A stretch of 64,000 nucleotides of DNA, from positions 55,152 to 119,151 of IMG/VR virus record IMGVR_UViG_3300047392_000113; one strand, given 5' to 3'. Positions 22,917-38,766 of this stretch are shown in pieces. The DNA comes from a virus. Lineage: Duplodnaviria > Heunggongvirae > Uroviricota > Caudoviricetes. The notes below the pieces were generated by a model. It was not told the origin of the DNA. It saw nothing but the letters and a program-made list of their open reading frames with translations, and searched no databases. A program made the position numbers and the translations under genes. Positions within the stretch are counted from its first letter, which is position 1. Every line of letters starts with the position of its first letter.

Positions 22917-22977
22917 AGTATTACTTTTACCCTACTTGCAGTAGGGTATTGACTTTTCGACAGATTGATGTATAATA
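22917..22977 (+). promoter_or_regulatory. PeSL-like cassette: AAGTATTAC motif, hairpin ACCCTAC-ttgca-GTAGGGT, then early promoter TTGACT-16-TGTATAAT.
   Basis: Stem 22929-35/22941-47. -35 at 22949-54, extended -10 at 22969-76. Same architecture as cassettes at 26.1, 28.6, 29.9 and 38.7 kb. Confidence 0.6.
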
Positions 22978-23002
22978 AAGTCCTGTCGGAAAGGAGTTGA
23001 AG

Positions 23003-23197
23003 ATGTCTGAAGTTAAACTGAATGGGCTCTACAAAGTTACTGTAACTGAGTACGAACGTGGTTGGGGACAACGTGTTGACGAAAATGATACAAAGTTCTT
23101 CACAACCCTCGAAGAAGCCGAGAAGTACAAAACCCATTGGGAAGAAGGTGGTACACCTGAATACTTCTGGCGTGCAAGAATTGAGAAGGTAAGTTAA
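23003..23197 (+). CDS. Hypothetical small protein (64 aa).
   Basis: ATG preceded by AAGGAG RBS. Charged, Trp-rich. Confidence 0.4.
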   Translation: MSEVKLNGLYKVTVTEYERGWGQRVDENDTKFFTTLEEAEKYKTHWEEGGTPEYFWRARIEKVS

Positions 23198-23322
23198 TGA
23201 GTTTCAAAGAGTGGTTGAAGTCTTTAGAGCCAACTCGTCGTCAATCTGCTGGTGAAGACTTTGCAGACAGTGTCGGTTTGATGGTGATTATGGCTCTTGT
23301 TTGTTTTGTTATTTTTCTGTGA
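23197..23322 (+). CDS. Small protein (41 aa) with C-terminal transmembrane helix.
   Basis: TAATG coupling to the upstream ORF. C-terminal LMVIMALVCFVIFL hydrophobic segment. Below the ORF-track size cut-off. Confidence 0.3.
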   Translation: MSFKEWLKSLEPTRRQSAGEDFADSVGLMVIMALVCFVIFL

Positions 23323-23329
23323 GATCGTT

Positions 23330-23644
23330 ATGAAAACACTCGTAGCACTTATTCTTGTCGCATCTATTGCAGGCACTGCAGTCGCTAAAGGTGGCGGTGG
23401 TGGAGGTGGCCATGGCGGTGGCGGTGGTCATGCTAGTTCTAGTGGGCATTCCAGTTCTTCTGGCAGTCATTCTAGTTCTGGTGGTGGTAAGGGTACATCC
23501 ACTGGTAAAAGTGCATCGGTTGCACCTGAGCCAAGTCGTTCTTCGACAACTACAAACACAACAAGTTCTAGTTGGTTCCCATGGTTTGGTGGTGGATCAA
23601 AAGGTTCTTCTGAGGAGAAGTGTAAGAAAGAAAAAACCTGCTAA
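23330..23644 (+). CDS. Secreted Gly/His/Ser-rich low-complexity peptide (signal peptide plus ~83-aa mature region with two C-terminal Cys).
   Basis: N-terminal MKTLVALILVASIAGTAVA is a canonical Sec signal (AVA-K cleavage). Mature part KGGGGGGGHGGGGGHASSSGHSSSSGSHSSSGGG...WFPWFGGG...CKKEKTC. Confidence 0.5.
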   Translation: MKTLVALILVASIAGTAVAKGGGGGGGHGGGGGHASSSGHSSSSGSHSSSGGGKGTSTGKSASVAPEPSRSSTTTNTTSSSWFPWFGGGSKGSSEEKCKKEKTC

Positions 23645-23702
23645 CAGGTTTCCTATATAAACAGGACAGGTAGTCTGTCCTATAATTTCTAAGGAGTTTA
23701 GA

Positions 23703-24677
23703 ATGAAAACTGGTATATTCATTGGGCGTTTCCAGCCCATTCATCACGGTCACATCCATGCGCTTGGAGTGGCTGCATCCCAAGTACAAAAACTGTACAT
23801 CCTTGTTGGTTCTGCCAACACATGTCGTAGTATTAAAAATCCTTGGTCGTTTGAAGAACGCAAGCAAATGCTTACGTTGAAACTTCACACCGAGCGAATC
23901 ACAAACTACGAAATTATTCCACTCAACGATTATCGTTACAGCGATACGCAATGGATGTCTGACGTCCGTGCAACTATCGAACATTACAATATGGGTTCAC
24001 CGATTTTGTTCGGACATATGAAAGAAGGTAATGATTATCTCAAGTGGTTCCCCGAATTAAAATTTAAGAGCATTGAGGCTCAATACACTATCAACGCCAC
24101 GATGATTCGTGAGGAGATGTTCGAGAACAATGACCCTCTAATGCCAGAAACTGTCAGAGGCGACTATGCTTTCTACCAAAAAGAAAAACAACTCTTCAAA
24201 GATTATCCATTTCCCGAAACACTCAACTTCAACTGTTCAGATGCAATCCTCGAATGTCAAGGACACGTCTTGCTTATCCAACGCAAGTTCAGTCCAGGAC
24301 GTGGTGCTTGGGCACTTCCAGGAGGTTTTCGCAATCAGCGTGAAACATTTCTCGACTGTGCAATCCGTGAATTGATTGAAGAAACTAATGTAAGAGTCCC
24401 AGAGAAAGTTCTCCGTGGCTCTATCGTGAAGACCGAATTGTTTGACAATCCAAGTCGTTCATTTGGTATTCCAAGAAACACTATGGCTGTGTACATGCGA
24501 GTTAGTCCTAATCCAGACTATTCGTTGCCACGTGCCAATGGTGCGGATGATGCTGCTCTGTGCAAGTGGGTGCCACTTACTGATGCACTGAACAACATCG
24601 AAATGTATGATGACCACAAGGACATCATCTCTAAAGTAACTGGTGTCATGCCGATGCCAGCGTTTGTTAAACTGTAA
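23703..24677 (+). CDS. natV: Bifunctional NMN adenylyltransferase / Nudix hydrolase (NatV-type).
   Basis: N-terminal cytidylyltransferase HIGH motif GRFQPIHHGH. C-terminal Nudix box GGFRNQRETFLDCAIRELIEETN. Confidence 0.85.
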   Translation: MKTGIFIGRFQPIHHGHIHALGVAASQVQKLYILVGSANTCRSIKNPWSFEERKQMLTLKLHTERITNYEIIPLNDYRYSDTQWMSDVRATIEHYNMGSPILFGHMKEGNDYLKWFPELKFKSIEAQYTINATMIREEMFENNDPLMPETVRGDYAFYQKEKQLFKDYPFPETLNFNCSDAILECQGHVLLIQRKFSPGRGAWALPGGFRNQRETFLDCAIRELIEETNVRVPEKVLRGSIVKTELFDNPSRSFGIPRNTMAVYMRVSPNPDYSLPRANGADDAALCKWVPLTDALNNIEMYDDHKDIISKVTGVMPMPAFVKL

Positions 24678-24687
24678 GGAGCTTACT

Positions 24688-26085
24688 ATGAAACTCGCAA
24701 AAAACATTCTCTTGAACACTGACAGCTACAAAGTCTCGATGTTCAAACAATATCCCGCTGGTACTACTGGCGTTTATAGCTACATCGAATCTCGTGGTGG
24801 TCGTTATGACAAAACCGTGATGTTCGGTCTACAAGCATTCATTAAGGAGTACCTGCTTGAACCAATCACCCAAGCCGATATTGATATTGCTGATGAAATT
24901 CTTACAGCCCATGGCGAACCTTTCAACCGAGAAGGATGGGAATACATTCTATCAGCACACGGAGGTTTCCTTCCTGTCGTTATTCGGGCTGTTCCTGAAG
25001 GCACAGTGGTTCCTGTTAAAAACGTTTTGGCAACTATTGAAAACACTGATCCAAAGGCGTTTTGGTTGACCACTTATCTGGAAACTGCATTGCTTCGTGC
25101 TGTGTGGTATCCTACTACTGTGGCTACTCAAAGCTACACTATTCGTAAAGTAATTCTTGACTATTTGGAGCGTACAGGTGACCCTAGTGGAATCGATTTT
25201 AAGTTGCACGATTTCGGTGCTCGTGGTGTGTCTAGCCTTGAATCTGCGGGCATCGGAGGTGCAGCACACTTGGTTAACTTCATGGGTAGTGATACTATTT
25301 CTGGTGTTCTGTATGCTCGTGAATACTATGGTGCTGGGATTGCAGGTTTCTCGATTCCTGCCGCAGAGCACAGTACAATTACTTCGTGGGGACGTGAAGG
25401 TGAAGTCGACGCCTACCGAAACATGCTTACCCAATTCGCAAAACCTGGAAGCATCGTCGCAGTAGTAAGCGACAGCTACGATGTATTCAATGCAGCTGGC
25501 AACTTGTGGGGTGATGAATTGAAAGCAGAGGTTGTTGCTTCTGGTGCTACTGTTGTTATTCGTCCTGACTCTGGTGATCCTTTGACTATTAACCAACAAT
25601 TGATCGAGATTCTTGGTCGTAAGTTTGGTTACACTGTTAACGGTAAAGGATTCAAAGTTTTGAACAACGTTCGTCTTATCCAAGGTGACGGTGTTAACGA
25701 ATTGAGCATTCGTTCTATCCTTGGTGGCTTTATGGCAATGGGTTGGTCTGCTGACAACATTGCATTCGGTATGGGTGGTGCTTTGCTCCAACAAGTGGAT
25801 CGTGACACTCAGAAGTTCGCAATGAAGTGTTCAGCTGCTCAAGTCAATGGTGTATGGGTTGATGTGCAAAAAGATCCTATCACTGATAGCGGTAAAAAGT
25901 CTAAAGCAGGGCGTGTAACCTTGTGGCAGTCTGGTGGTGAGTTTGCTTCTGGTGTGACTCCACCTTCTGGTTGGACTGATAAAGGTTTTGGTGGTTGGAC
26001 TGAAGCAATGCAAACAGTGTTCCGTGATGGTAAAATCATCCGTGAATACGACTTTGCAGAGGTTCGAGCCAACGCTAAAAAGTAA
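24688..26085 (+). CDS. nadV: Nicotinamide phosphoribosyltransferase (NAMPT/NadV).
   Basis: N-terminus NILLNTDSYKVSMFKQYP and overall 465-aa length typical of NAMPT. Adjacent to natV, forming an NAD+ salvage pair. Confidence 0.9.
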   Translation: MKLAKNILLNTDSYKVSMFKQYPAGTTGVYSYIESRGGRYDKTVMFGLQAFIKEYLLEPITQADIDIADEILTAHGEPFNREGWEYILSAHGGFLPVVIRAVPEGTVVPVKNVLATIENTDPKAFWLTTYLETALLRAVWYPTTVATQSYTIRKVILDYLERTGDPSGIDFKLHDFGARGVSSLESAGIGGAAHLVNFMGSDTISGVLYAREYYGAGIAGFSIPAAEHSTITSWGREGEVDAYRNMLTQFAKPGSIVAVVSDSYDVFNAAGNLWGDELKAEVVASGATVVIRPDSGDPLTINQQLIEILGRKFGYTVNGKGFKVLNNVRLIQGDGVNELSIRSILGGFMAMGWSADNIAFGMGGALLQQVDRDTQKFAMKCSAAQVNGVWVDVQKDPITDSGKKSKAGRVTLWQSGGEFASGVTPPSGWTDKGFGGWTEAMQTVFRDGKIIREYDFAEVRANAKK

Positions 26086-26104
26086 TACTTTAGACTTACA
26101 AAAG

Positions 26105-26130
26105 AAACCCCACCTCGTGTGGGGTTTTCT
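26105..26130 (+). terminator. Rho-independent terminator after nadV.
   Basis: AAACCCCAC-ctcgt-GTGGGGTTT followed by TTTCT. Confidence 0.7.
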
Positions 26131-26163
26131 AACTTGTTGATTTTACACGTCTTTTTTCAACTG

Positions 26164-26192
26164 TTGACTTTTTACAAGAATTCAGGCATAAT
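26164..26192 (+). promoter_or_regulatory. Early promoter TTGACT-17-CATAAT, part of a PeSL-like cassette that also contains the AACTTGTTGATTTTACA motif at 26131-26147.
   Basis: -35 at 26164-69, -10 at 26187-92. Upstream GTAATACT motif at 26082-89. Confidence 0.5.
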
Positions 26193-26216
26193 TCATTATA
26201 CTGAATCGGAGAAAAT

Positions 26217-26384
26217 ATGTGGGATGACTTTAGTGACTACGAACTAGCCGAACTGGCTGGTCAGTATGGGTTGGAAGACAACCTAGTTTTTGATTATGAA
26301 CTTGGTCTTGCGAATCGTGATGAGATCGAGAAACTTTTGACAGAATTTGAATGGGAGATTGCAAATGCAGAATACAGCATCTGA
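26217..26384 (+). CDS. Small acidic protein (55 aa).
   Basis: ATG with GGAGAAAAT RBS. Overlaps the start of the following VWA gene by ~20 nt in another frame. Confidence 0.3.
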   Translation: MWDDFSDYELAELAGQYGLEDNLVFDYELGLANRDEIEKLLTEFEWEIANAEYSI

Positions 26385-28563
26385 TCTGAGCGCACGTTTG
26401 TTGGCCACAGAAAACCTTTCTGTTGTTCGTGCCAAAGCACCCACTGCATCCTTTAACATTAAGTCTCGTGTTTTGACTTTGCCTCTTTGGAAAGATATGA
26501 CTCCAGAGATCGAAGATATGCTTATCGGACACGAAGTTGGTCACGCATTGTGGACTGGCGAAGCATACTTGGAGCCGATTAAAGAAACACCCAAGTTGAT
26601 GACATATATGAACGTATTGGAAGACGTTCGTATCGAAAAGATGATGAAGCGTAAGTATCCTGGAATTCGTAAGCGTATGAATGAAGGTTACAAGCAACTC
26701 AATGAACGTGACTTCTTTGGTGTTAAGTCTATCCAAGACTTCAATGAGTTGCTATTGATTGACCGCATCAATCTGTATTTCAAAGTTGGTTTCGATTGTG
26801 GTGTTACATTCACGCCTGTAGAAAAAGCATTCGTGAATCGTGCAGAGCGCACTGAGACCATGGAAGAGATTGTTGCCTTGGCTCAGGAAATTTTCGCATA
26901 TTCTAAAGAACAAGCTGAGAAGCGTAAACAAGAGCGCATGGAATTGGGCTTGGACTCTGAAGAAGATGAAGACGAAGACGATGAACCGATGCAAGGTGAT
27001 TTTGATATCGATGATCTTGATGACTTTGATCTTGAAGAAGACGAAGACGCTGGCGATGATAAGAAAACATCCAAGGGTGGTTCAAGCAAAGAAAATCAAG
27101 ATGCTGCCAGTGACGATGTTAAGGATGAAGACTTAGAAGCCAAAACTGATAAGGTATTCCAACAACGTCTTGAGGAATTGGCTGACGATTCTACAGAGTA
27201 CTTGTACTGGAAATTCGATACAAAATACTATGAAGATCCAGTTGTTGGCTACAAGACTATTCTCAATGAGACTAAGTCTATCCACGATTGGAATGCTGAC
27301 TTGTATCAACAACAAGACTACAAGACTCGCTACATGGACGATGCCCAGCGTAGAGAATTCTTTGGCACTTTCACCCGAGAGTATGATCAATTCAAAACCG
27401 ATTCTATGCGCACGGTAAATTACCTTGTTAAAGAATTCGAGATGAAGAAGTCTGCACAAATTCTTAAACGTGCTCAGGTTTCCAAATCTGGTTCTCTGAG
27501 TATGGGTAAGGTTTGGGCTTACAAACTGCAAGATGATTTATTCAAGCGTGTGACTGTCTTACCACAAGGTAAGAATCACGGTATGGTTATGTTGCTGGAC
27601 TGGTCTGGTTCCATGGACGCTGTATTGCAAGACACATTGAAGCAGGTTATTAACCTTGCTATGTTCTGCCAACGAATCCAAGTGCCATATCGTGTGTATG
27701 CATTTTCAACTGATTACGAAAAAGATTTGTCTTATGACGAACGCAATCTTCGTCATCAAAAGATGCGTGACTTCTATTCATCTCTTGGTGATCGTACTAG
27801 TTTGTTGAGCAACACACGTGGTTTCCACTTGTTGGAATTCTTCAACGATAAGATGTCTTCATCCGAGTTTAATGAAATGTCTCGTCGTTTGTTGGATTAT
27901 CGTTTCCGTTGGAATGATGGTTACAGTACTTCTGGTACTCCATTGAACGAAGCATTGGCATGGTGCTATCTGAATCTTGGTGAGTTTATCAAGAGAAACA
28001 ATCTCGAGAAAACTACATTCATTACTCTTACTGATGGTGAAGGTGGTCAGCTGCATGGTGATGGTCGTCGTCTTGAGTCTGTTCGTAATGATTATATTGA
28101 CGGTAAATACACCCGCACTAAACTGCGCCATTTTATCCGTGATGACGTTACGAAGAAAACTTATGAGTTGAACAATCATTCTGCAACTCAGACTGAAACG
28201 ATTTTGCGAATGATCAAAGATCGCCACAATGTGAACACCGTAGGTTTCTATATCTGCCGTAATCATCGTCGTGATTTGCAGTCTGTCATTGGTGCAAACC
28301 TTCCAGGTTATACTGGCAGTACTGAAGTTTTGATTGAGAATTGGAGAAAACAATTCCGTGATCAATCCTTCGCTTCTGTCAAAAACACTGGGCGTGATGA
28401 GTTGTTCTTGATTCCTCAGTCTTCTACAAAGATTGAAGAAGGTGAACTTGATGTCAAGTCTGATGCAAAGGCTGCTAGCATTGCTCGCAACTTTAGCAAA
28501 TACCTGAACGTTAAGAAGACTTCTCGGGTGCTTTTGAATCGTTTCGTGGCTCTTGTAGCCTAA
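26365..28563 (+). CDS. cobT: CobT-like von Willebrand factor A (VWA) domain protein with an acidic linker and a predicted metallopeptidase-like HExxH (HEVGH) near the N-terminus.
   Basis: MIDAS motif LLDWSGSM in a VWA fold region. Long acidic stretch EEDEDEDDEP...DDLDDFDLEEDED. HEVGHALW motif near the N-terminus. Gene pairs with the following MoxR/CobS ATPase. Confidence 0.65.
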   Translation: MQNTASDLSARLLATENLSVVRAKAPTASFNIKSRVLTLPLWKDMTPEIEDMLIGHEVGHALWTGEAYLEPIKETPKLMTYMNVLEDVRIEKMMKRKYPGIRKRMNEGYKQLNERDFFGVKSIQDFNELLLIDRINLYFKVGFDCGVTFTPVEKAFVNRAERTETMEEIVALAQEIFAYSKEQAEKRKQERMELGLDSEEDEDEDDEPMQGDFDIDDLDDFDLEEDEDAGDDKKTSKGGSSKENQDAASDDVKDEDLEAKTDKVFQQRLEELADDSTEYLYWKFDTKYYEDPVVGYKTILNETKSIHDWNADLYQQQDYKTRYMDDAQRREFFGTFTREYDQFKTDSMRTVNYLVKEFEMKKSAQILKRAQVSKSGSLSMGKVWAYKLQDDLFKRVTVLPQGKNHGMVMLLDWSGSMDAVLQDTLKQVINLAMFCQRIQVPYRVYAFSTDYEKDLSYDERNLRHQKMRDFYSSLGDRTSLLSNTRGFHLLEFFNDKMSSSEFNEMSRRLLDYRFRWNDGYSTSGTPLNEALAWCYLNLGEFIKRNNLEKTTFITLTDGEGGQLHGDGRRLESVRNDYIDGKYTRTKLRHFIRDDVTKKTYELNNHSATQTETILRMIKDRHNVNTVGFYICRNHRRDLQSVIGANLPGYTGSTEVLIENWRKQFRDQSFASVKNTGRDELFLIPQSSTKIEEGELDVKSDAKAASIARNFSKYLNVKKTSRVLLNRFVALVA

Positions 28564-28569
28564 AACGTA

Positions 28570-28672
28570 AGTATTACATCTGTAAGTTGTTGATTTTACA
28601 AGGAAAATAACCCTACTTTTTGTGGGGTTATTTCCAAAAAGTTGTTGACTTTTTTGCAGATTGATGTATAAT
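28570..28672 (+). promoter_or_regulatory. PeSL-like cassette: AAGTATTAC, 21-nt motif TGTAAGTTGTTGATTTTACAA (28581-28601), hairpin 28607-28631, promoter TTGACT-16-TGTATAAT.
   Basis: -35 at 28645-50 and -10 at 28667-72. The 21-nt motif recurs inverted at 38682-38702 and degenerate at 26131-47. Confidence 0.6.
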
Positions 28673-28694
28673 ATGTGTATGTTCTTGATTATGA

Positions 28695-29867
28695 ATGGAG
28701 TTTGTGATGAGTAAAGTTGACGCTGTGGTTCGCCGTGAGTTTGAGATTAAACTTGCTGAGATGTTCCCCGATACCCAAACGTCTGGGCAGGTATCTCGCC
28801 CCCAACTTATTGAAGTTATGGGTGCTCTAAAGACAGAGAAGTTCCCTCTCTGGCTTATGAAAAATAAAGTTGGTCGTGGTATTTACGCTATTGATGGTGG
28901 TAAAACTACAACTGTTGTTGGTAATACCGCATTGAAAGATGAACCCGTGGAATCATACGTTGTTGACTACACAAATGTAGAATCACTTATCCCTCTTAAA
29001 GATCCAAACTTTGTTCCATTCGGTAACTACACTGATTTGGAAAACATTATCAAGTCTGGTATTTTCTATCCTGCATACATCTCTGGTCCAACTGGTAACG
29101 GTAAGTCCACGATGGTCGAACAAATTTGTGCCAAGCACAAGCGTCCACTGATTCGTGTTAACCTGAACATGATGACTGACGAAGAACAACTCATCGGTTC
29201 CAAAACTCTTCAGAATGGAAACGTAGAAGTTGTGGAAGGTCCAGTTCTTATCGCTATGCGCACTGGTACAACTCTGCTGCTTGACGAAATTGACGCTGGC
29301 TCTGCTAACACTCTGTTGTGTTTGCAACCAATTCTCGAAGGTAAACCCTACTACTTCAAGCTGAACAACGAGATGATTGTTCCTGCCAAGGGTTTCAATA
29401 TCTGCGCCACTGCTAACACAAAGGGTAAAGGCTCAGACGATGGTCGTTATATTGGTACTAACGTACTGAACGAAGCGTTCTTGGAGCGTTTCGCTGTAAC
29501 CTTTGAACAGGAATATCCTAGTGCTAAGGTTGAAGTTAAGATTGTTAAGAATCTTATGGAATCTTACGGTTGTGCAGACGAAGAATTTGCAGAGACTCTC
29601 GTTAAGTGGGCTGATGCAATTCGTCGCACATTCGAAGATGGTGGTGTCGATGAGACTATTACGACTCGTCGTATGATTCACATCGTACGTGCCTTTGCGA
29701 TTTTCCAGAATCGTGCTAAGGCAGTTGAGTTGTGTTGCAATCGTTTCGACTCGGCTACTAAGGATGCGTTCCTGAAGCTGTACGATAACATTGCAAACCC
29801 TGCTCCCGAAGCACCTCCTGTAGTGGAAGCACCGACTCCTCGTCCTTCGGATGAAGTTCCATTCTAA
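28695..29867 (+). CDS. cobS: CobS-like MoxR-family AAA+ ATPase.
   Basis: Walker A GPTGNGKST, Walker B LLLDEIDAG, overall similarity to aerobic cobaltochelatase CobS / phage CobS proteins. Probable start MSKVDAV at 28707. Confidence 0.85.
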   Translation: MEFVMSKVDAVVRREFEIKLAEMFPDTQTSGQVSRPQLIEVMGALKTEKFPLWLMKNKVGRGIYAIDGGKTTTVVGNTALKDEPVESYVVDYTNVESLIPLKDPNFVPFGNYTDLENIIKSGIFYPAYISGPTGNGKSTMVEQICAKHKRPLIRVNLNMMTDEEQLIGSKTLQNGNVEVVEGPVLIAMRTGTTLLLDEIDAGSANTLLCLQPILEGKPYYFKLNNEMIVPAKGFNICATANTKGKGSDDGRYIGTNVLNEAFLERFAVTFEQEYPSAKVEVKIVKNLMESYGCADEEFAETLVKWADAIRRTFEDGGVDETITTRRMIHIVRAFAIFQNRAKAVELCCNRFDSATKDAFLKLYDNIANPAPEAPPVVEAPTPRPSDEVPF

Positions 29868-29870
29868 AAA

Positions 29871-29948
29871 GTAATACTTAAGTAATCCCTTGCAAGTTGT
29901 AGGGGATTACAACTAAGTGTTGACTTCTTGGATGGTTTGGTGTATAAT
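29871..29948 (+). promoter_or_regulatory. PeSL-like cassette: GTAATACT motif, hairpin GTAATCCC-13nt-GGGATTAC, promoter TTGACT-17-TATAAT.
   Basis: Stem 29882-89/29903-10. -35 at 29920-25, -10 at 29943-48. Confidence 0.6.
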
Positions 29949-29990
29949 ATAGTCTTGAAATCGTTGAAATCTTTCTAAAGGAAATTTATT

Positions 29991-30473
29991 ATGTTGAAAT
30001 TTGCTGACTTGTCTTTGTCTCAAAAGCGTTTTGTTGTGGCTCTGTTGGAAGCTAATCCTCAGTACAAGAAAAACTCTCAGATTACTCTGAAGGAATGTGC
30101 TGCGTTCTATTACACTATGCGTGACCAACGCACTGGTGCTAAGGGCGAGAAGATCGGTTATCCTAACTGGTTGTTCAACAAGAACAAAGTTGAGCGTGGT
30201 TTGTACCAAGTACCTGTGCCTAACGCAACTGAATTGTCTGCGTTCGCTAAGGAAGTTGCTGCAAAGCAAGCACCGAAGGCTACTGCAAAAGCAGCTAAGG
30301 CTACTGTAGCCAAAGTTGTTAAGGTGAAGACTGCAAAGGTCGCACCTGCTCCTGCCAAGGAGAAAACTCTGGAAGGCACTCGTCTCCAGAAAGTTATCGA
30401 TGAATCCATCAGCATGGACGACGAAGTCGAAGACTTCAATCAGATCCTGCGTGAGAATGGTATCGAAGTCTAA
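29991..30473 (+). CDS. Protein with N-terminal globular domain and histone H1/AlgP-like Ala/Lys-rich repeat tail. Putative DNA-binding.
   Basis: AAKQAPKATAKAAKATVAKVVKVKTAKVAPAPAKEK low-complexity KA(P) repeats, acidic C-terminus. Confidence 0.45.
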   Translation: MLKFADLSLSQKRFVVALLEANPQYKKNSQITLKECAAFYYTMRDQRTGAKGEKIGYPNWLFNKNKVERGLYQVPVPNATELSAFAKEVAAKQAPKATAKAAKATVAKVVKVKTAKVAPAPAKEKTLEGTRLQKVIDESISMDDEVEDFNQILRENGIEV

Positions 30474-31203: not shown

Positions 31204-31578
31204 ATGTTATTTGGTATCAATCCAATTATACATTCAGATCTTAAAGTTCAACTTGAGAATCTGAAAAAAGAAAACGAAAACCTAAAATATGCCAATGACG
31301 TATATCGTAAACGTCTTGAAGGTGAGATGGCTACTGCTTCAGTTGCTATTGACTGGAATGCAATGAAAGTTTTCTCAGTTGAGCGTATGTGGGAAAACGG
31401 ACTACCAAAAACAGTCCTTGGTTATATGTTATCAGAGCCAATGGTCACTACTTCTGGCGAAGGTGTTGAACGTGTAACTGAGAAAGAAATTGTTCGTGAG
31501 TGGACGTTATATTGTTCTGCAGAAAAGCATGAACAATTGGTCGTGGAATTTAATCAATATTTAATGGAGAAACAGTGA
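31204..31578 (+). CDS. Hypothetical protein with N-terminal coiled coil.
   Basis: 124-aa ORF coupled to neighbours. No motif. Confidence 0.35.
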   Translation: MLFGINPIIHSDLKVQLENLKKENENLKYANDVYRKRLEGEMATASVAIDWNAMKVFSVERMWENGLPKTVLGYMLSEPMVTTSGEGVERVTEKEIVREWTLYCSAEKHEQLVVEFNQYLMEKQ

Positions 31579-32450
31579 TGTTTATTTTTGGCGTAACCTT
31601 GCTCTTGGCGATTGCAGCTGCAATTTTTCTTTATGTTTTGCACGAAACTCGTGGTGGAACTACAACGTATCCATTCCGTAAACTTGTAGCACTACCTTTC
31701 ATTCTTCCAGTAGTTGTTCTGGTGTTTGAATCCTTTACTGTTGTTTCTGCTGGTCACGTTGGTGTTCAGGTTACAATGGGTACTGTGAATCCCGAAACTC
31801 TTTCTGAAGGTGTTCACTTGGTGAATCCTGTGTCACGTGTTCGTGATGTTGAAGTTCGAGTTGTAAAGGCAGACTTGAAGGGTGCTAGTGCTGGTACCAA
31901 AGACTTGCAAGTTGTACACACTGACCTAGTTGTTAACTACCGAATTGATGGTAGCAAAGCAGCACACATGTACAAAGAGTTTGGATTGGATCTAGAGAAT
32001 AAGATTCTTCTTCCTGCTGCAAACGAATCTTTCAAAGCAGTCACTGCACATTACAATTCTGAAGAACTTGTTATCAAACGTGATCAAGTCAGCAAGGGTA
32101 TTCACGATGAGTTACAAAACAAAGTCGGTAAGTATGGTTTGACTATTAGCGAAATCTCTTTGGTTAACTTTGGATTCTCTGCAGAGTACCAACAAGCCAT
32201 CGAACAAAAGGTTATTGCTACACAACAAAAGCAAAAAGCTGAACAAGACTTAGAGCGTATCAAAGTTGAAGCACAACAAGCAATTGCTCGTGCTGAGGGT
32301 AATGCAAAGGCTATTCAGATTCAAGCACAGGCTATCCAAAATCAAGGTGGTGCTGCTTATGTGCAACTTCGTGCAATTGAAAAGTGGGACGGTAAGCTAC
32401 CCCAATACAATGGCGGTGGTGCAGTTCCTTTCGTAAACTTGGGGAAATAA
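31575..32450 (+). CDS. SPFH/band-7 (prohibitin/HflK-like) membrane protein.
   Basis: N-terminal TM helix, then SAGHVGVQVTMG...VHTDLVVNYRI...IKRDQVS...LTISEISLVNFGFSAEYQQAIEQK plus a C-terminal coiled coil (QQKQKAEQDLERIKVEAQQAIARAEG) typical of the PHB domain. Confidence 0.7.
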   Translation: MMFIFGVTLLLAIAAAIFLYVLHETRGGTTTYPFRKLVALPFILPVVVLVFESFTVVSAGHVGVQVTMGTVNPETLSEGVHLVNPVSRVRDVEVRVVKADLKGASAGTKDLQVVHTDLVVNYRIDGSKAAHMYKEFGLDLENKILLPAANESFKAVTAHYNSEELVIKRDQVSKGIHDELQNKVGKYGLTISEISLVNFGFSAEYQQAIEQKVIATQQKQKAEQDLERIKVEAQQAIARAEGNAKAIQIQAQAIQNQGGAAYVQLRAIEKWDGKLPQYNGGGAVPFVNLGK

Positions 32451-32699
32451 ATGACACTAGCATCTGATGCAGATAAAAAGAAACTCCACGCTGCAATCGT
32501 GGAAATTAGTAACTCAATGACTCGTATTGAAGGTGAGCGAGACTTGATTAAGGAAACTGTGAAGGATCTTTCTGATGCCTTCCAGATTCCTAAGAAGACT
32601 ATTAGCAAGATTGCCAAAACGTACCACAAACAAAACTTCTCTCAAGCTGTTGCTGAGAACGAAGAATTTGAAGAGTTGTACGAAAAGATTACAAAATAA
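32451..32699 (+). CDS. Hypothetical small acidic protein.
   Basis: 82-aa ORF. No motif. Confidence 0.35.
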   Translation: MTLASDADKKKLHAAIVEISNSMTRIEGERDLIKETVKDLSDAFQIPKKTISKIAKTYHKQNFSQAVAENEEFEELYEKITK

Positions 32700-32769
32700 A
32701 TTTGTCAGAAAGCCCAATTTCGGGTAAAATGTTTTATACATAGTAATGTGTTTATTGAATGGAGAAAAT

Positions 32770-33426
32770 ATGAAACTTAGTAAAGAGACTGTCGGTCTGA
32801 TTAAGAATTTTGCTGGCATCAACAGCAACCTTCTGTTAAAGAGTGGCAACAAGCTGGCAACAATCAGCGCACAGAAAAACGTAATGGCTGACGCCACTGT
32901 TACAGAAACATTCCCAGACTTTGGTATCTATGACTTGAATGAGTTTTTGGGTGCAATGTCTTTGTTTGAAGATCCTGAATTGGACTTCAGCGAGAAGTAT
33001 GTAACTATTAAACAAGGTAATAGTTCTATCAAGTATTTCGCTGCAGATGCTAGCGTACTTACTGCTCCTCAAAAGAGCATTACATTCCCGAATGCTGAGA
33101 TCGAATTTAATATGAGCGCAAATATGCTCAGTATGATTCAGCGTACTGCTTCTGTACTTCGTGCATCTGACGTATCAATCGTTGGTGACGGATCAACAAT
33201 CACTGCAGTTGTTGGCGATAAAAAGAACTTAACTGGTAACTCGTTTAACCAACCTGTTGGTCAAACTGATAAATCTTTCAAGGTTAACTTGAAGGTTGAA
33301 AACCTAAAGATGCTTCCAGGCGATTATGTCGTGAGCATCTCTAGCAAGAAAATCTCTCGCTTCCAAGGCACTGGAGACCTAGTTTATTATGTAGCAGTCG
33401 AAGCAGATTCCACCTTTGACTTTTGA
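32770..33426 (+). CDS. gp45: Sliding clamp gp45.
   Basis: MKLSKETVGLIKNFAGINSNLLLKSG...YVVSISSKKISRFQGTGDLVYYVAVEADSTFDF aligns end-to-end with T4 gp45 (MKLSKDTTALLKNFATINSGIMLKSG...ANYVVALEADSTHDF). GGAG RBS. Confidence 0.9.
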   Translation: MKLSKETVGLIKNFAGINSNLLLKSGNKLATISAQKNVMADATVTETFPDFGIYDLNEFLGAMSLFEDPELDFSEKYVTIKQGNSSIKYFAADASVLTAPQKSITFPNAEIEFNMSANMLSMIQRTASVLRASDVSIVGDGSTITAVVGDKKNLTGNSFNQPVGQTDKSFKVNLKVENLKMLPGDYVVSISSKKISRFQGTGDLVYYVAVEADSTFDF

Positions 33427-33429
33427 TTT

Positions 33430-33460
33430 AAGAGGGAGATTATAATCCCTCTTCTTTTTA
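33430..33460 (+). terminator. Rho-independent terminator after gp45.
   Basis: AAGAGGGA-gattataa-TCCCTCTT followed by CTTTTTATT. Confidence 0.6.
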
Positions 33461-33473
33461 TTATGGATGTATT

Positions 33474-34037
33474 ATGACTGCAAATATCAAAGATCCTTTA
33501 TACTTTTACACATCGTTCAACTCACGTGAAGAACTAGAAGCTGAGATACAAAAGCGTGAAGAGGTTTCTGCTTACAACAAACAGAATGCAGAAACTTGGT
33601 ATGAGGATTTGTCGAGATTCATCAATAGAAACCTTTATCAAAACACTATTGACAATGCTAGACCTAAGGGTAAGAACAAGAGAAAGTTTGAACACACCAT
33701 AACGTTGGATAACCTAGAGAAAATGTGGGAACATAATAAAGGGTTATGTGCTGCAACTGGTGTTCCTATGACTTGGCGTAAAGACGATTCTCCTATCACT
33801 CGTGTCACAGTAGATAGGATCGATTCTTATCGTGGTTATACTCTTGATAATATATGGCTAGTTACAAGTGGATTTAATACGATGAAGATGGAGTTTCATC
33901 TTAGCGAAGTGTTAAAGGTTTTCCCTTATGAGAAAACGACAGATACATTTAAACAAATTTTGGAAGAAATGCGGTTAGGAAAAAGATTGACTCATAATGA
34001 TCATCTGCTTCCTACTAATATTGAAGCAACTTTTTGA
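33474..34037 (+). CDS. Hypothetical protein with a degenerate HNH-like segment (possible homing-endonuclease relic) inserted between gp45 and gp44.
   Basis: LCAATGVPMTW...VDRIDSYRGYTLDNIWLVTSGFNTMK fits the HNH pattern C..CG...DHID...N...LC..CN..K with His→Arg and Cys→Ser/Gly substitutions. Confidence 0.35.
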   Translation: MTANIKDPLYFYTSFNSREELEAEIQKREEVSAYNKQNAETWYEDLSRFINRNLYQNTIDNARPKGKNKRKFEHTITLDNLEKMWEHNKGLCAATGVPMTWRKDDSPITRVTVDRIDSYRGYTLDNIWLVTSGFNTMKMEFHLSEVLKVFPYEKTTDTFKQILEEMRLGKRLTHNDHLLPTNIEATF

Positions 34038-34047
34038 GGATTATATA

Positions 34048-34998: not shown

Positions 34999-35005
34999 GG
35001 ATACT

Positions 35006-35329
35006 ATGGAAGAATTTTTAGTAGTTGTTGCAGTGTTTGTTGTAGGTTTCATATTTGGTTGGGATTTCCGTGAACGTACTGCACGTAAATTTGTTGATAA
35101 ATTCTTAAGTGAGAATCTGGATACCCTCCAACGCCATGTAGATGAGAACACGGTAAGTATTATTATCGAGAGACATGGAGAAATGCTCTATATCTTTCAA
35201 AAAGATGACAGTTCTTTTATGGCTCAGGGTAAGAATCGTGAAGAATTGGAATCGGCTTTGGCTAAAAAGTATCCAGGAAAACAATTCTTTGCATCCCCAG
35301 AAAACTTAAAAGAAGTTGGGTTTAAATAA
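35006..35329 (+). CDS. Small membrane-anchored hypothetical protein.
   Basis: N-terminal TM helix FLVVVAVFVVGFIFGW. 107 aa. Confidence 0.35.
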   Translation: MEEFLVVVAVFVVGFIFGWDFRERTARKFVDKFLSENLDTLQRHVDENTVSIIIERHGEMLYIFQKDDSSFMAQGKNREELESALAKKYPGKQFFASPENLKEVGFK

Positions 35330-35330
35330 T

Positions 35331-35519
35331 ATGATGAAAATTTTAAGTGAGTTCCAACAAGGGACACGTAACGCTAGAGTTTATAAAACTACTAATGGTG
35401 AGTACGGTGTTGTGGTTTATGATTCACAAGATGATTACAATGGTTTCGATAGCTTCGAATTCTTAGAGCATGCTGAGGATTTCGCAGAAGATTGGGTGAC
35501 AGGAAATGTCTCCATTTGA
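35331..35519 (+). CDS. Small acidic hypothetical protein (62 aa).
   Basis: ORF coupled to neighbours. No motif. Confidence 0.3.
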   Translation: MMKILSEFQQGTRNARVYKTTNGEYGVVVYDSQDDYNGFDSFEFLEHAEDFAEDWVTGNVSI

Positions 35520-35889
35520 TTTCGTCAACGCCATTAACTTTAAAAAGAACATCTTAGCAGAAGACCCTCAAGCAGAAAAGGAGTACGATAAAGGTAAGTG
35601 GATCGTCAATAAAGCGTATAGTTATTTTCCAGATACGATTATGCCAGCCAATGCTATGAATGAGCATTGGTCTATTCCAGCTAAGTGGCAATTTCAGTTT
35701 TTCCTAAATACAATTACCAAAGGTAAGCGTAAGTCTGATTGGATCAAAAAAGAACCAACACCAGAGGCGCTCAAACTCGTAAAAGAATACTTTGGTTACT
35801 CAAGCGAAAAGGCAAAGGAAGCGTTAAGAATTCTCACAGCTGAAGACTTGAAAGTGATTGAAGAAAAATTATTTAAAGGTGGAAAATAA
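35506..35889 (+). CDS. gp62: Clamp loader small subunit gp62-like (by position between gp44 and regA).
   Basis: 127-aa ORF in the T4 gene-62 slot. Short gp62 orthologues exist in divergent T4-like phages. Direct similarity weak. Confidence 0.45.
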   Translation: MSPFDFVNAINFKKNILAEDPQAEKEYDKGKWIVNKAYSYFPDTIMPANAMNEHWSIPAKWQFQFFLNTITKGKRKSDWIKKEPTPEALKLVKEYFGYSSEKAKEALRILTAEDLKVIEEKLFKGGK

Positions 35890-36308
35890 TGTCTGTAGAG
35901 ATGATATACTACGACTGGACACCCGAGTCCATGCTTGAAGTGACACTGCCAGAACCCGACAACTTTTTGAAGGTTCGAGAGACTCTTACTCGCATCGGCA
36001 TCGCATCCAGAAAAGAAAACAAATTGTACCAATCCTGCCATATCTTACATAAGCAGGGTAGGTATTTCATCGTCCATTTCAAAGAACTCTTTGCATTGGA
36101 TGGTAAAGAATCGAATATCACTAGCGGTGATATCGAGAGACGAAACGCTATTGCTAGTCTGTTGGCTGATTGGGATCTATTAAAGATTCTAAATACTCAG
36201 CAGGCAGAACAAAAAGCGTCTCTGTCTCAAATTAAGGTGGTCTCTTATAAAGAGAAAGACCAATGGGAATTAGTGCCAAAATATAATATTGGGAAAAAAG
36301 CAAAATGA
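35889..36308 (+). CDS. regA: Translational repressor RegA.
   Basis: FLKVRETLTRIGIASRKENKLYQSCHILHKQGRYFIVHFKELF...WELVPKYNIG aligns closely with T4 RegA (FLKVKETLTRMGIANNKDKVLYQSCHILQKKGLYYIVHFKEML...WKLVPKYTIG). Confidence 0.9.
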   Translation: MSVEMIYYDWTPESMLEVTLPEPDNFLKVRETLTRIGIASRKENKLYQSCHILHKQGRYFIVHFKELFALDGKESNITSGDIERRNAIASLLADWDLLKILNTQQAEQKASLSQIKVVSYKEKDQWELVPKYNIGKKAK

Positions 36309-36481
36309 TTAAACTTGATTTGACAATTGAAGAAGTAAATACTATTCTACGCTCTTTGGGTAAGCACCCTTTTGACGAGATCGCAAACTTAATCGTTAAG
36401 ATTAAACAGCAAGGTGAACCACAGGTTGAAGAAATCGTTCGCCAAGCTGAAGCAGCAAAAGCTGAAGCACCAGCTGCATAA
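36305..36481 (+). CDS. Small hypothetical protein (58 aa).
   Basis: ATGA overlap with the regA stop. Ala/Glu-rich C-terminus. Below the track size cut-off. Confidence 0.3.
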   Translation: MIKLDLTIEEVNTILRSLGKHPFDEIANLIVKIKQQGEPQVEEIVRQAEAAKAEAPAA

Positions 36482-36482
36482 A

Positions 36483-36705
36483 TAAATTTGCATCCCTCGG
36501 GATGGGAACCAGCATACCTGCGAAGGCTGGATAAATGTCCACAGGTGCCGAATTTAAGAACCCACCTTAGGGCACGTTAGTCGTCACGGTAACAGGCGTC
36601 CGAGCAATTGCACTGACACTCGTAGTTGTCGCTGGATAAAGTAACCAGCATGTTATGCCTTCGGGGTAACTACAATTTAATTAACTCGCTTAATAGGAGA
36701 AAACT
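36483..36705 (+). ncRNA. Candidate structured non-coding RNA / leader upstream of hsp20. GC-rich island with multiple tetraloop hairpins.
   Basis: Largest non-coding gap in the window. ~50% GC vs ~38% genome. Hairpins CATCCC-tc-GGGATG, CCAG..CCT-GCGA-AGG..CTGG (GNRA loop), GTGCC...GGCAC, CC-TTCG-GG (UUCG loop). Repeated AACCAGCAT. Confidence 0.35.
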
Positions 36706-37215
36706 ATGATTACTAAATCATTCGTACCCGCATTCTTTTCACAAGATGCATTCAAAGACATCGATAAACTATTTCTAGGATTCGATGACCAATTCAAGCA
36801 AATGCAACAACTGCATGATGACTTGACAAAAAACATTCCAAACTATCCTCCATTTAATGTCCGTAAGAACGGTAACACTTACACAATCGAATTAGCTGTT
36901 GCTGGTTTCGCACAAAACGAAATCGACATCACTATCGATGGTGGTAAGCTAATCGTCAAGGGCAACTCTGAGTCTACTGAACCAGAGGATAACTTTGTAT
37001 TCAAAGGTATCGCTAACCGTGCATTCACTCGTGCATGGGCTATCGGCGATACTTATGAAGTCAAAGATGCTGAGTTGTTCAACGGTATCTTGAAAATTGC
37101 GCTTGATAAGCTAGTTCCAGAAGAACAAAAAGCTAAGAAAGTTCCAGTAAAAACTAAAGGAAGCAAGCAATTTTTACAGGAGGATGGTTATGACAAAGCT
37201 GCTGAAAGCCTGTAA
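36706..37215 (+). CDS. Small heat-shock protein (Hsp20/alpha-crystallin family).
   Basis: Alpha-crystallin domain features (PPFNVRKNGNTYTIELAVAGF...IDITIDGGKLIVKG...GILKIAL). 169 aa. Confidence 0.8.
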   Translation: MITKSFVPAFFSQDAFKDIDKLFLGFDDQFKQMQQLHDDLTKNIPNYPPFNVRKNGNTYTIELAVAGFAQNEIDITIDGGKLIVKGNSESTEPEDNFVFKGIANRAFTRAWAIGDTYEVKDAELFNGILKIALDKLVPEEQKAKKVPVKTKGSKQFLQEDGYDKAAESL

Positions 37216-37518
37216 AGAAATCGTACTTGGAATTGCTGATGGCATTAATCAGTTTAAAACTTACAAGCAAGGTAAAGTAAAATGATGAACTTGCTCAAAA
37301 GACTGTCCAAGTTATTTGAGCAAAAATCCCAACTTGAGTTGTATATACTTTCTAAGAATCCACAATCTGCCGCAGATGTAGAGCACTGGTCTAGAAATTA
37401 TTCTCAAAGAAGGGGTTATACATTATGAACAACTGGATTCCAATGACTGATGACGACTGGGATTGGGTGAACGGTAAAGTTCCACCAAACCCAAATGATA
37501 AAACAAAGTGAGGAAATC

Positions 37519-37968
37519 ATGTCACTAACATTAAAAAATATTGAGAGTGCTTTAGCTGGTGAGTCTATGGCTCACATCAAGTATCGTTACTTCGCTAAGA
37601 TCGCACGTGAAGAAGGTTTCGAGGAAGTTGCTCAACACTTTGAGCATACAGCTGACCAAGAAATCAAGCACGCATGGGGTCATCTAGAATTGCTAATCGG
37701 CAAGCCATCCACTAAGGAATGCTTGGAGAAAGCGATCGAAGGTGAGACTTATGAGTATACAGAAATGTATCCGCAGTTTGAAAATACTGCAAAGGCAGAA
37801 CAAAACATTGAAGCTGTTAAAGAATTCAATGAGCAGGGTCGTGAATCAAACGAACACGCTCAACAATTCAAAGCAGTACTTGCAAAAGCAGAAAAGCGTT
37901 TCGCAGCTTTGAAGAAAGTTGAAGAGCGCCATGCTAATGCATACAAACAAGTTTTGGGAGGTCTATAA
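37519..37968 (+). CDS. Rubrerythrin-like ferritin-type diiron domain protein (lacks the fused rubredoxin-like domain).
   Basis: Paired diiron motifs E..H: ALAGESMAHIKYRYFAKIAREEGFEEVAQHFEHTADQEIKHAWGH and a second EGETYEYTEMYPQF...E half. Immediately followed by a separate rubredoxin gene. Confidence 0.75.
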   Translation: MSLTLKNIESALAGESMAHIKYRYFAKIAREEGFEEVAQHFEHTADQEIKHAWGHLELLIGKPSTKECLEKAIEGETYEYTEMYPQFENTAKAEQNIEAVKEFNEQGRESNEHAQQFKAVLAKAEKRFAALKKVEERHANAYKQVLGGL

Positions 37969-38096
37969 TGGAACACGTATGTGTAGTTTGTGGTCACATC
38001 CACGATGAGGAAACTGAAGGTAAGTGGGAAGATCTTCCAGCTGACTTTCTCTGTCCAGAGTGTGGTGTAGGTAAAGACGAATACGAAAGTATTTAA
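37968..38096 (+). CDS. Rubredoxin (42 aa).
   Basis: MEHVCVVCGHIHDEE...W.DLP.DF.CPECGVGKDEYE has both CxxCG and CPxCG knuckles and the conserved W. TAATG coupling to the rubrerythrin gene. Not in the ORF track because it is under 60 aa. Confidence 0.8.
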   Translation: MEHVCVVCGHIHDEETEGKWEDLPADFLCPECGVGKDEYESI

Positions 38097-38140
38097 TCGT
38101 CATACAATTTTAGGGGTCTTAGGATCCCTAAATAATTTGT

Positions 38141-38344
38141 ATGATGAGAGCAAGACTATCCCCCAATCTAATTTCATTCGTCTTAGTGCGAAGAGGGGAA
38201 TGGCATCTCAAGGTATCTGTTTACAAAAACAAATACATAATGGTTGCAGCACATCACACGATAGACTTTGATAAGTTTATCATCAAGTTCTTTGAAGACC
38301 AAAATGTTGCTGCAGATTTTATCGAAAGATTAGTTGAGGAATAG
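38141..38344 (+). CDS. Hypothetical small protein.
   Basis: 67-aa ORF. No motif. Confidence 0.3.
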   Translation: MMRARLSPNLISFVLVRRGEWHLKVSVYKNKYIMVAAHHTIDFDKFIIKFFEDQNVAADFIERLVEE

Positions 38345-38636
38345 TATGATTAAAGTGTTTAAGTTGATTAATGGTGAAGAAGTTATTAGCGAAGTTACAT
38401 CTGACTCACAAGCTGGGTATTTCTTAGAGAGTCCAGCATCAATTCAATTACAACAAACTGCTCAGGGTGTTGGTGTAGGTATTGCTCCGTATATGCCTTA
38501 CGCTAAAGATAAGATTTATCTTTTCAAGCATGCAATTGCCAGTGAAGCTAATGCTGATGAAAAGATGGAAAACGAATATCGCAGAGTTTTCGGCTCTGGT
38601 ATTCAGGTAGTCTCCGCTGGCTCCATCAAACTGTAA
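38334..38636 (+). CDS. Hypothetical protein (100 aa).
   Basis: ORF with overlapping start. No confident family. Confidence 0.35.
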   Translation: MRNSMIKVFKLINGEEVISEVTSDSQAGYFLESPASIQLQQTAQGVGVGIAPYMPYAKDKIYLFKHAIASEANADEKMENEYRRVFGSGIQVVSAGSIKL

Positions 38637-38642
38637 TCCAAA

Positions 38643-38766
38643 AGTATTACTTTTTAGGCTCCCTCTTGGGGGCTTTTTTCATTGTAAAATCAACAACTTA
38701 CAATCCCCTCAACCCTGTAGGGTTACTCCAGAAAGGTGTTGACTTTTTTGCAGATTAGGGTATAAT
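38643..38766 (+). promoter_or_regulatory. PeSL-like cassette: AGTATTAC, terminator hairpin (38657-38679), inverted 22-nt motif TTGTAAAATCAACAACTTACAA (38682-38703), hairpin AACCC-tgta-GGGTT, promoter TTGACT-16-GGTATAAT.
   Basis: -35 at 38739-44, -10 at 38761-66. The motif is the exact reverse complement of 28581-28601. Confidence 0.6.

Follow-up and report, generated by a model that had tools for sequence, protein, structure and literature searches.

Five intergenic regions in a 64,000 nt stretch of DNA from an uncultivated T4-like phage (Caudoviricetes; IMG/VR record IMGVR_UViG_3300047392_000113, positions 55,152 to 119,151; hereafter the window) probably represent composite terminator-promoter cassettes of the promoter early stem-loop (PeSL) type, which might occasionally have served as crossover points (rough probability 0.72). 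PeSLs are known from the T4-type phages RB49/phi1, T4/PST and KVP40/nt-1 (Arbiol et al. 2010, PMC2839356; Comeau et al. 2014, PMC4122927). In their definition, a sigma70-like early promoter is combined with a stem-loop whose arms contain G/C runs; the region upstream is A/T-rich, and a Shine-Dalgarno (SD) sequence and an ATG follow at the 3' end (PMC2839356, PMC4122927). The anatomy of the five elements fits this definition, in agreement with a first-pass annotation of the window that had described them as PeSL-like.

In the proposed arrangement, the hairpin of each cassette would close one early transcription unit and a strong sigma70-type promoter would open the next, the promoter having an A-tract just upstream of the -35 box and being followed by an SD sequence and an ATG. 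The cassettes draw on a small set of modules common to a large uncultivated T4-like lineage; from 5' to 3', these are a stop-adjacent palindrome (AAAGTAWTACTTT), the hairpin, a 21/22-mer (GTAAGTTGTTGATTTTACAGGG) and the promoter. The promoter is the constant part, while hairpin, palindrome and 21-mer are optional and turn over quickly. Because the cassettes have identical blocks of 10-21 nt in common, they might occasionally act as crossover points.

Anatomy of the five cassettes

The cassettes, numbered along the window, and their modules are listed below; promoters are predicted.

22915..23002, + strand: cassette 1, from the stop codon of the gp46/SbcC-like gene to a small open reading frame (ORF); palindrome AAAGTATTACTTT at 22915-22927
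22928-22948, + strand: cassette 1 hairpin, TACCCTAC-TTGCA-GTAGGGTA, -12.4 kcal/mol, z -2.8, directly abutting the -35 box
22949-22954 and 22971-22976, + strand: cassette 1 promoter, -35 TTGACT and -10 TATAAT; SD GGAG, ATG at 23003
26079..26216, + strand: cassette 2, from the NadV stop codon to a small ORF and the CobT-like gene; palindrome AAAGTAATACTTT at 26079-26091, overlapping the stop codon
26105-26127, + strand: cassette 2 hairpin, AAACCCCAC-CTCGT-GTGGGGTTT, followed by TTTTCT
26128-26148, + strand: cassette 2 variant of the 21-mer, with a 17-nt core at 26131-26147 (1 mismatch), 27 nt from the -35 box
26164-26169 and 26187-26192, + strand: cassette 2 promoter, -35 TTGACT and -10 CATAAT; ATG at 26217
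28564..28694, + strand: cassette 3, from the CobT-like stop codon to the CobS-like start codon; degenerate palindrome at 28570-28577
28581-28601, + strand: cassette 3 21-mer, TGTAAGTTGTTGATTTTACAA, exact, 55 nt from the -35 box
28602-28635, + strand: cassette 3 hairpin, core CCCTAC-TTTTT-GTGGGG at 28611-28627, z -3.6
28645-28650 and 28667-28672, + strand: cassette 3 promoter, -35 TTGACT and -10 TATAAT; ATG at 28695
29868..29990, + strand: cassette 4, from the CobS-like stop codon to the KA-rich ORF; palindrome AGTAATACT at 29870-29878
29882-29910, + strand: cassette 4 hairpin, 13 bp, GTAATCCCTTGCA-AGT-TGTAGGGGATTAC, -22.6 kcal/mol, z -6.3, no U-tract
29920-29925 and 29943-29948, + strand: cassette 4 promoter, -35 TTGACT and -10 TATAAT; ATG at 29991
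38637..38799, + strand: cassette 5, from the stop codon of ORF 38334-38636 to the ORF starting at 38800; 15-bp palindrome AAAAGTATTACTTTT at 38640-38654
38656-38675, + strand: cassette 5 SL1, a terminator-like hairpin followed by TTTTTT
38682-38702, - strand: cassette 5 inverted 21-mer, 46 nt from the -35 box, within a ~42-nt inverted unit (38685-38725) that includes a hairpin arm
38705-38722: cassette 5 hairpin remnant
38739-38744 and 38761-38766, + strand: cassette 5 promoter, -35 TTGACT and -10 TATAAT; ATG at 38800
32700..32745, + strand: an additional promoter cassette that was absent from the first-pass annotation, with the gp45 promoter TTGTCA-17-TAAAAT

The five gaps with a GC-rich stem-loop and a near-consensus sigma70 promoter had already been annotated and were recovered, with promoters at 22949, 26164, 28645, 29920 and 38739. 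Of the 12 positions of the sigma70 consensus, these promoters match 10-11; their spacers measure 16-17 nt, and the start codon follows 16-43 nt downstream. The top-scoring intergenic sigma70 matches between 20 and 40 kb are precisely those of the five cassettes; in the window as a whole, 26 sites on the + strand and 3 on the - strand match at 10 or more of the 12 positions. A 33-nt promoter string given in the first-pass annotation does not occur exactly anywhere, its nearest counterparts being found at 28642 (1 mismatch) and 38736 (3 mismatches). Cassettes 2-5 have an A-tract ahead of the -35 box; in cassette 1 the hairpin adjoins the -35 box instead. Perfect 12/12 matches (TTGACA-17-TATAAT) were found in coding DNA at 20628-20656, 47594-47622 and 51677-51705, located 150-200 nt upstream of the next gene start and without hairpin or cassette.

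All five hairpins fold better than shuffled sequences, and the family to which they belong (CCCYAC..GTRGGG) is confined, among the intergenic sites of the window, to the five cassettes. The layout of an intrinsic terminator, a GC-rich stem followed by a U-rich tract, is seen in cassette 1 (tail TTGACTTTT), cassette 2 (TTTTCT), cassette 3 (TTATTTCC) and SL1 of cassette 5 (TTTTTTCATT). In these four cassettes the arrangement resembles the intrinsic terminators and early promoters that delimit early units of phage T4, as does the position of the cassettes between convergent ends of transcription units with all genes co-directional. It differs from them in cassette 4, in that the stems form one conserved family rather than being idiosyncratic, and in the fixed distance of the hairpin from the next promoter.

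The cassette family in related phages

IMG/VR holds hundreds of contigs related to the window. Three sets of loci were fetched, together ~270 uncultivated-phage loci (designated L plus a number) and ~2.9 Mb including the window: 80 loci around CobS (78-96% amino-acid identity), 80 loci around NadV and more than 100 loci with the 19-mer core of the 21-mer. From these, 591 unique promoter-centred segments were extracted. The recurrence in relatives that the first-pass annotation had proposed as a check was borne out, as the elements are found throughout a large family of related uncultivated phages. This widens the range of PeSL-type cassettes to a large T4-like lineage of uncultivated phages, distant from the three groups in which such elements were defined.

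An extended promoter consensus was obtained from 537 unique instances (cAAAAAa..cTTGaCtttnAtt....tTG..GTATAATa), with the A-tract at -9 to -4; the spacer measures 17 nt in 91% of them. Folding energies of -8 kcal/mol or below are reached by 61% of the 54-nt stretches that precede the -35 box, compared with 19% of control stretches. The hairpins constitute one sequence family, AATAACCCYAC-N5-GTRGGGTTATT, with free loops; in 57 of 85 cases they are centred 24-25 nt ahead of the -35 box. In 53 distinct hairpin copies, 88% of the cells are paired (81% in shuffles) and 54 cells are doubly changed, i.e., compensatory, where 27 are expected; neither value was reached in any of 500 shuffles, and the covariation score is well above that of slid controls.

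The modules differ in their constancy. Upstream of CobS, at the site of cassette 3, 55 unique relatives show a promoter in 53 cases, a hairpin in 43, the 21-mer in 28 and the palindrome in none. Downstream of CobS, at the site of cassette 4, the corresponding numbers in 58 unique relatives are 58, 37, 3 and 9, so that module turnover is seen at an orthologous site. Some cassettes carry two or three hairpin copies. The data set of ~590 unique cassette instances thus presents the promoter as a stable core and the hairpin, palindrome and 21-mer as interchangeable add-ons.

Features shared with PeSLs are the intergenic combination of a stem-loop that has G/C-run arms with a sigma70-like promoter, the A-rich stretch ahead of the -35 box, SD and ATG at the 3' end, the clustering of several copies among early or variable genes, and the occurrence of at least one module of several genes that lies between two copies where relatives have a single one. 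A hairpin upstream of the -35 box, as found in the window, is one of five PeSL subclasses (PMC2839356, PMC4122927), and relatives also show the RB49-type placement between -35 and -10. The gp45 promoter of relatives has its hairpin within the spacer, in RB49-type geometry. Downstream of NadV, seven loci (L191, L193, L203, L205, L218, L220 and L223) carry RB49-style promoter hairpins (TACCCCTTGACT...GGGGTATAAT) whose arms bracket the -35 box and the spacer; these are a second cassette type in the same lineage. Apart from the distance of the lineage from all three published phage groups, the elements differ from PeSLs in their extra conserved modules (the stop-adjacent 13-bp palindrome and the 21/22-mer), which are not described for PeSLs, in the much shorter homology between copies within the window genome (21 nt or less, compared with the ~100 bp reported for RB49/phi1), and in that the window cassettes show no statistical association with indels; promoter and terminator function is predicted here.

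Probable exchange of the NAD-salvage module

A clear case of a mobile unit is the nicotinamide adenine dinucleotide (NAD)-salvage module between cassettes 1 and 2, assigned from Pfam matches.

22997..26085, + strand: NAD-salvage module, with small ORFs, NatV and NadV
23658, + strand: internal promoter-like site in the module
23703-24677, + strand: NatV (NMNAT and Nudix)
24643-26085, + strand: NadV (NAMPT)

This block is missing in 43 of the 46 relatives that hold gp46, where the order is gp46, one cassette, CobT. Its topology is the one that recombination between cassettes would be expected to give. Most likely, the 3.2-kb NatV-NadV unit would have been gained (or lost) through recombination within or close to the hairpin of a cassette already present between gp46 and CobT, which would leave one cassette on each side. 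In L009, the closest relative lacking the module, the single cassette is collinear with cassette 2 of the window, and its 21-mer, promoter and 5' untranslated region are near-identical to those of cassette 2. Its palindrome centre (T) and hairpin (CCCTAC/GTAGGG) have the diagnostic bases of cassette 1. In other contigs the NAD module lies beside different genes, between palindrome-hairpin-promoter cassettes, in at least three contexts (the window, L194 and L204); in L194 the two flanking cassettes share ~45 nt. A CCCCAC-type hairpin downstream of NadV moves with NadV into other contexts. A further insertion flanked in this way was found in L003, where 3.2 kb at cassette 2 have a cassette at each end. 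The window NadV (24643-26085) shows 88-89% amino-acid identity to the copies of L191/L192 and L206/L227, compared with 82-85% on the contigs that are closest by CobS, which hints at exchange of the NAD module between lineages.

Gene-level synteny was compared between 55 window genes and the 80 CobS loci, with the following result at the cassette junctions.

Cassette 1: 43 of 46 relatives differ
Cassette 2: 41 of 43 differ
Cassette 3: 1 of 61 differs (position conserved in 60 of 61)
Cassette 4: 0 of 80 differ (position conserved in 80 of 80)
Cassette 5: 22 of 24 differ

Gene content therefore varies at cassette junctions 1, 2 and 5 and is constant at 3 and 4. Five cassette copies lie within 16 kb of the 64-kb window, and ~2/3 of the gene junctions there vary among relatives, with core replication genes present too. 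The modular shuffling by cassettes that the first-pass annotation had raised is partly supported: cassettes flank the NAD module and the L003 insertion, with no overall enrichment at indels.

Several observations speak instead for the cassettes as purely regulatory punctuation, in which their similarity would follow from functional constraint and common descent, without any role in shuffling; the borders of the NAD module would then coincide with cassettes since a self-contained transcription unit must start with a promoter and end with a terminator. Breakpoints are not enriched at cassettes (3/5 cassette junctions vary), because ~27/40 of the cassette-free junctions vary too. Cassettes 3 and 4 are positionally fixed. 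Among ~13 distinct recent indels, taken from locus pairs of L001-L270 that are 93-100% identical, none has cassettes on both sides; most of them concern one small ORF, and their junctions fall at SD/ATG-stop overlaps with repeats of 0-24 nt, which suggests that ORFs are usually gained and lost through gene-boundary microhomology rather than through the cassettes. Exact repeats between the window cassettes do not exceed 20 nt (direct) or 21 nt (inverted). Apart from this alternative, cassette 2 by itself can be aligned over the full length of the L009 cassette, and mapping of the NAD-block crossover with L009 is suggestive but not resolvable at ~75-80% identity. Cassette 4 ends in AACTAAG instead of a U-tract. 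Finally, early timing, terminator and promoter activity and the position of the crossover are what we infer from sequence alone. All these points weigh against the combined reading of terminator-promoter cassettes that occasionally act in recombination. Nevertheless, a purely regulatory role is possible but rather unlikely in our view. The NAD module is bracketed by the same palindrome-hairpin units in at least three different contexts, relatives without the module retain precisely one cassette that combines features as a recombinant would, and PeSL mini-circles have been demonstrated experimentally in RB49/phi1 (PMC2839356).

The hairpins might also be selfish palindromes similar to repetitive extragenic palindromic (REP) sequences or bacterial interspersed mosaic elements (BIME), spread by a REP-associated tyrosine transposase (RAYT) or an IS200-type transposase and not by homologous recombination. 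Repetitive integration host factor (IHF)-binding palindromic elements (RIP) and BIMEs of E. coli and other enterobacteria contain an IHF site flanked by REP hairpins; a comparable order of hairpin, IHF-like site and second hairpin is seen in cassette 5. In addition, a single hairpin family with conserved stems and free loops occupies many intergenic sites, in two or three copies in some cassettes, and the stems contain GTAG. However, GTAG adjoins the loop and not the foot of the palindrome, where it is described for GTAG-tagged REPs in PMC3733652; no transposase-like gene is present among the annotated ORFs of the window, and the fixed hairpin-to-(-35) distance of 24-25 nt is more in keeping with part of a promoter or terminator than with random insertion. 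We therefore regard transposase-driven spread as very improbable.

Taken together, we read the cassettes as primarily transcription-unit boundaries and only occasionally crossover points. This tempers the view that PeSLs drive modular shuffling: one clear multi-gene module, an auxiliary metabolic unit for NAD salvage, moves between cassettes, while most indels, including all recent ones, do not involve them.

An indel hotspot was observed directly upstream of the gp45 promoter (31204-32745), with the promoter cassette at 32700..32745 as its right border; 72 of 76 relatives differ there. Near-identical pairs of loci (L017/L055, L026/L040 and L028/L033) have insertions of 192, 371 and 988 nt at the same point, where the window carries the block 31204-32699. 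In L064, compared with L063, a 97-nt tandem duplication (12503-12601) covers the 5' untranslated region and the start of gp45, with flanks that are 100% identical.

The 21-mer and its helical phasing

The 21-mer of the first-pass annotation was found exactly where it had been placed, at 28581-28601 (+) and 38682-38702 (-), and so was a third copy, the 17-nt core with 1 mismatch at 26131-26147. The 21-mer is a discrete element, with 0-2 mismatches to the 19-nt core in 70 cassette copies and a background that starts at 6 mismatches, as in shuffles. In unique promoter segments it occurs in + orientation in 71 and in - orientation in 13 cases. Its TAA is the CobT stop codon in most relatives.

On its reverse strand the 21-mer contains AATCAACAACTTA, which matches exactly the 13-bp core of IHF sites (WATCAANNNNTTR), a consensus confirmed in the literature (e.g. 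PMC8942017). The matches in the cassettes of the window are the following.

28583-28595, - strand: AATCAACAACTTA
38688-38700, + strand: AATCAACAACTTA
26130-26142, - strand: AATCAACAAGTTA

The only invariant triplets in 64 unique copies are TAA and TTG, which correspond to the TTR and CAA of the IHF consensus on the other strand. The consensus is matched 10 times in the window, where 5.9 +/- 2.7 matches are expected, and given this base rate of ~6 per window the IHF match alone is weak evidence.

The distance between the 21-mer and the -35 box takes discrete values. In + orientation, measured from the centre of the 21-mer, it is 25-28, 36-39, 46-48 or 55-60 nt, and in - orientation 25-27 or 44-46 nt, with nothing between these bands. 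The three window copies lie at 27 nt (cassette 2), 55 nt (cassette 3) and 46 nt (cassette 5), measured from the first T of TTGAT and therefore one nt less than in the centre-based bands. Rayleigh analysis yielded R 0.80 at a period of 10-10.5 bp, and for 15 conservative classes R 0.81 at 10.5 bp, a value not reached in 20,000 random draws, although the module sizes (hairpin unit ~31 nt) could yield part of this phasing. Hairpin-less cassette versions have phased A-tracts in the spacer between the 21-mer and the -35 box.

We tentatively propose that the 21/22-mer may be bound by a protein that bends DNA, host IHF or a functional analogue encoded by the phage, and that it is kept in helical register with the early promoter; we would not yet call this proposal probable. 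Like IHF sites upstream of sigma70 promoters, it combines the exact core and its invariant CAA/TTR with distance steps of ~10.5 bp in both orientations. It differs from a normal IHF site in that ~22 positions are conserved, far more than usual; binding is putative, and the helical phasing agrees with it only indirectly. No phage HU or IHF gene was found in the 2.9 Mb with approximate query sequences. If the proposal is correct, PeSL-like cassettes would be promoters under architectural control, and possibly also nucleoprotein complexes in which recombination at the adjacent hairpins is favoured. PeSL exchange would then gain a protein cofactor, on which the original PeSL authors speculated without identifying it, and the stop-adjacent 13-bp palindrome might be a second protein site or the crossover core. 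The helically phased 21-mer with its IHF-like core thus offers a concrete and cheaply testable hypothesis on cassette regulation.

Other assignments of the 21-mer were considered and rejected. Formation of an RNA hairpin (TGTAA/TTACA) is not supported by covariation (G0/C17; position -1 is C in half of the copies and A18 is invariant). A promoter of its own or a middle promoter of the MotA-box type would need a conserved -10 element, and none was found at any fixed downstream spacing. It resembles a -35 region, as a degraded '-35 half' of a PeSL would, but the bimodal mismatches and the phasing favour a maintained element.

A scan of bacterial genomes for the 22-mer, aimed at finding the host, gave two uninformative hits. 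An exact GTAAGTTGTTGATTTTACAGGG is present at L272 1769-1790 in AT-rich intergenic DNA, the source being an Acidobacteriota metagenome-assembled genome contig (JBDTUN010000909.1, 3.7 kb) that has no homologues of the window proteins.

Suggested inversion between the 21-mers

The exact inverted copies at 28581 and 38682 had been suggested to mediate inversion of the intervening 10 kb. The presence of an exact 21-nt inverted repeat is in line with this, yet no inverted segment was found in the 80 CobS loci. When these were compared with the window by blastn, 697 high-scoring segment pairs (770 kb) were on the plus strand and 3, with 114 nt in total, on the minus strand; the latter are confined to 38675-38725 and 28581-28617 and thus correspond to the cassette fragment itself. 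All called genes of the window are on the + strand, and the interval holds the core replication genes gp45, gp44, gp62 and regA. The two copies are not a unique pair either, since the 21-mer is a common cassette module, found in over 118 copies across viral contigs and, at several positions, in either orientation, and 21 nt are short for homologous recombination. Inversion of the 10-kb interval is thus extremely unlikely.

The inverted 21-mer of cassette 5 is probably the result of a local flip of ~42 nt between palindromic hairpin arms. The inverted unit comprises a hairpin arm and the 21-mer, and it has the usual orientation in many relatives, e.g. L057 and L075. The flip is common to L001 and L004 and missing from L002 and L003.

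The stop-adjacent palindrome and a sixth site

The 8-mer AGTATTAC/GTAATACT that marks the cassettes has 11 copies in the window, where 2.1 are expected, and none of 100 shuffles reached this number. Six copies lie 0-9 nt past + strand stop codons (22917, 26082, 28570, 29871, 38643 and 45606) and the other five in coding DNA (822, 20974, 50222, 52650 and 61618). The six stop-adjacent sites had all been noticed before, with the last one placed at 45604 instead of 45606. The motif had been written in two forms; AGTATTACT and AGTAATACT are, however, one 9-bp palindrome (AGTA-W-TACT), and an orientation is therefore meaningless. The perfect palindrome is longer, 13-15 bp (AAAGTAWTACTTT), in cassettes 1, 2 and 5. 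An RNA hairpin formed by the palindrome was rejected as impossible, as its loop would be 1 nt. Phasing of the palindrome relative to the -35 box is weak (R ~0.45).

45599..45628, + strand: sixth site, half-palindrome GTAATACTTTTTAGG at 45606-45620, with 11 nt in common with cassette 5; no hairpin

The lack of a stem-loop at this site agrees with the first-pass annotation. The weaker promoter that had been assigned to it is probably no promoter, because its putative -10 element (GATAAT) overlaps the SD sequence, 2 nt before the ATG. The sixth site is thus probably a remnant and not a functional cassette.

Genomic context and phage lineage

The gene order is gp46/SbcC-like, cassette 1, small ORFs, NatV and NadV, cassette 2, CobT-like, cassette 3, CobS-like (MoxR AAA), cassette 4, a KA-rich ORF, MazG, a lipoprotein and a regulator, followed by gp45, an HNH endonuclease, gp44, gp62, regA and Hsp20, cassette 5, an ORF, DNA ligase and gp43. 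The accessory genes said to be bracketed by the cassettes are present (NatV/NadV, CobT-like, CobS-like and the KA-rich ORF), but the 8.6-kb interval between cassettes 4 and 5 is, by its gene assignments, largely core replication machinery rather than accessory.

Megablast against GenBank phages revealed no close relative of the window phage. CobS (50-59% identity) and gp43 (55%) are related to those of Pelagibacter phage HTVC008M and cyanomyoviruses, and the cyanomyoviruses are the nearest cultured phages (gp43 identity 55%). Rfam and tRNA scans of the window yielded no hits.

An HNH/endonuclease VII-like ORF (33474-34037) lies between the gp45 clamp and the gp44 clamp loader genes, with a 41-nt overlap with gp44. 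It is missing from all 65 relatives that have both neighbours and looks like a free-standing homing endonuclease specific to the window genome. Between ORF 36305-36481 and Hsp20, a GC-rich intergenic region of 224 nt (36482-36705) has no Rfam hit and folds no better than shuffles (z -1.35); extra DNA is found at this junction in 22 of 46 relatives. Finally, ORF 26217-26384 encodes 55 aa behind a good SD sequence and runs, in a different frame, into the 5' end of the CobT-like ORF (26347-28563). Conserved in 44 loci, this ORF could represent either an independent small gene or the N-terminus of CobT after a frameshift.

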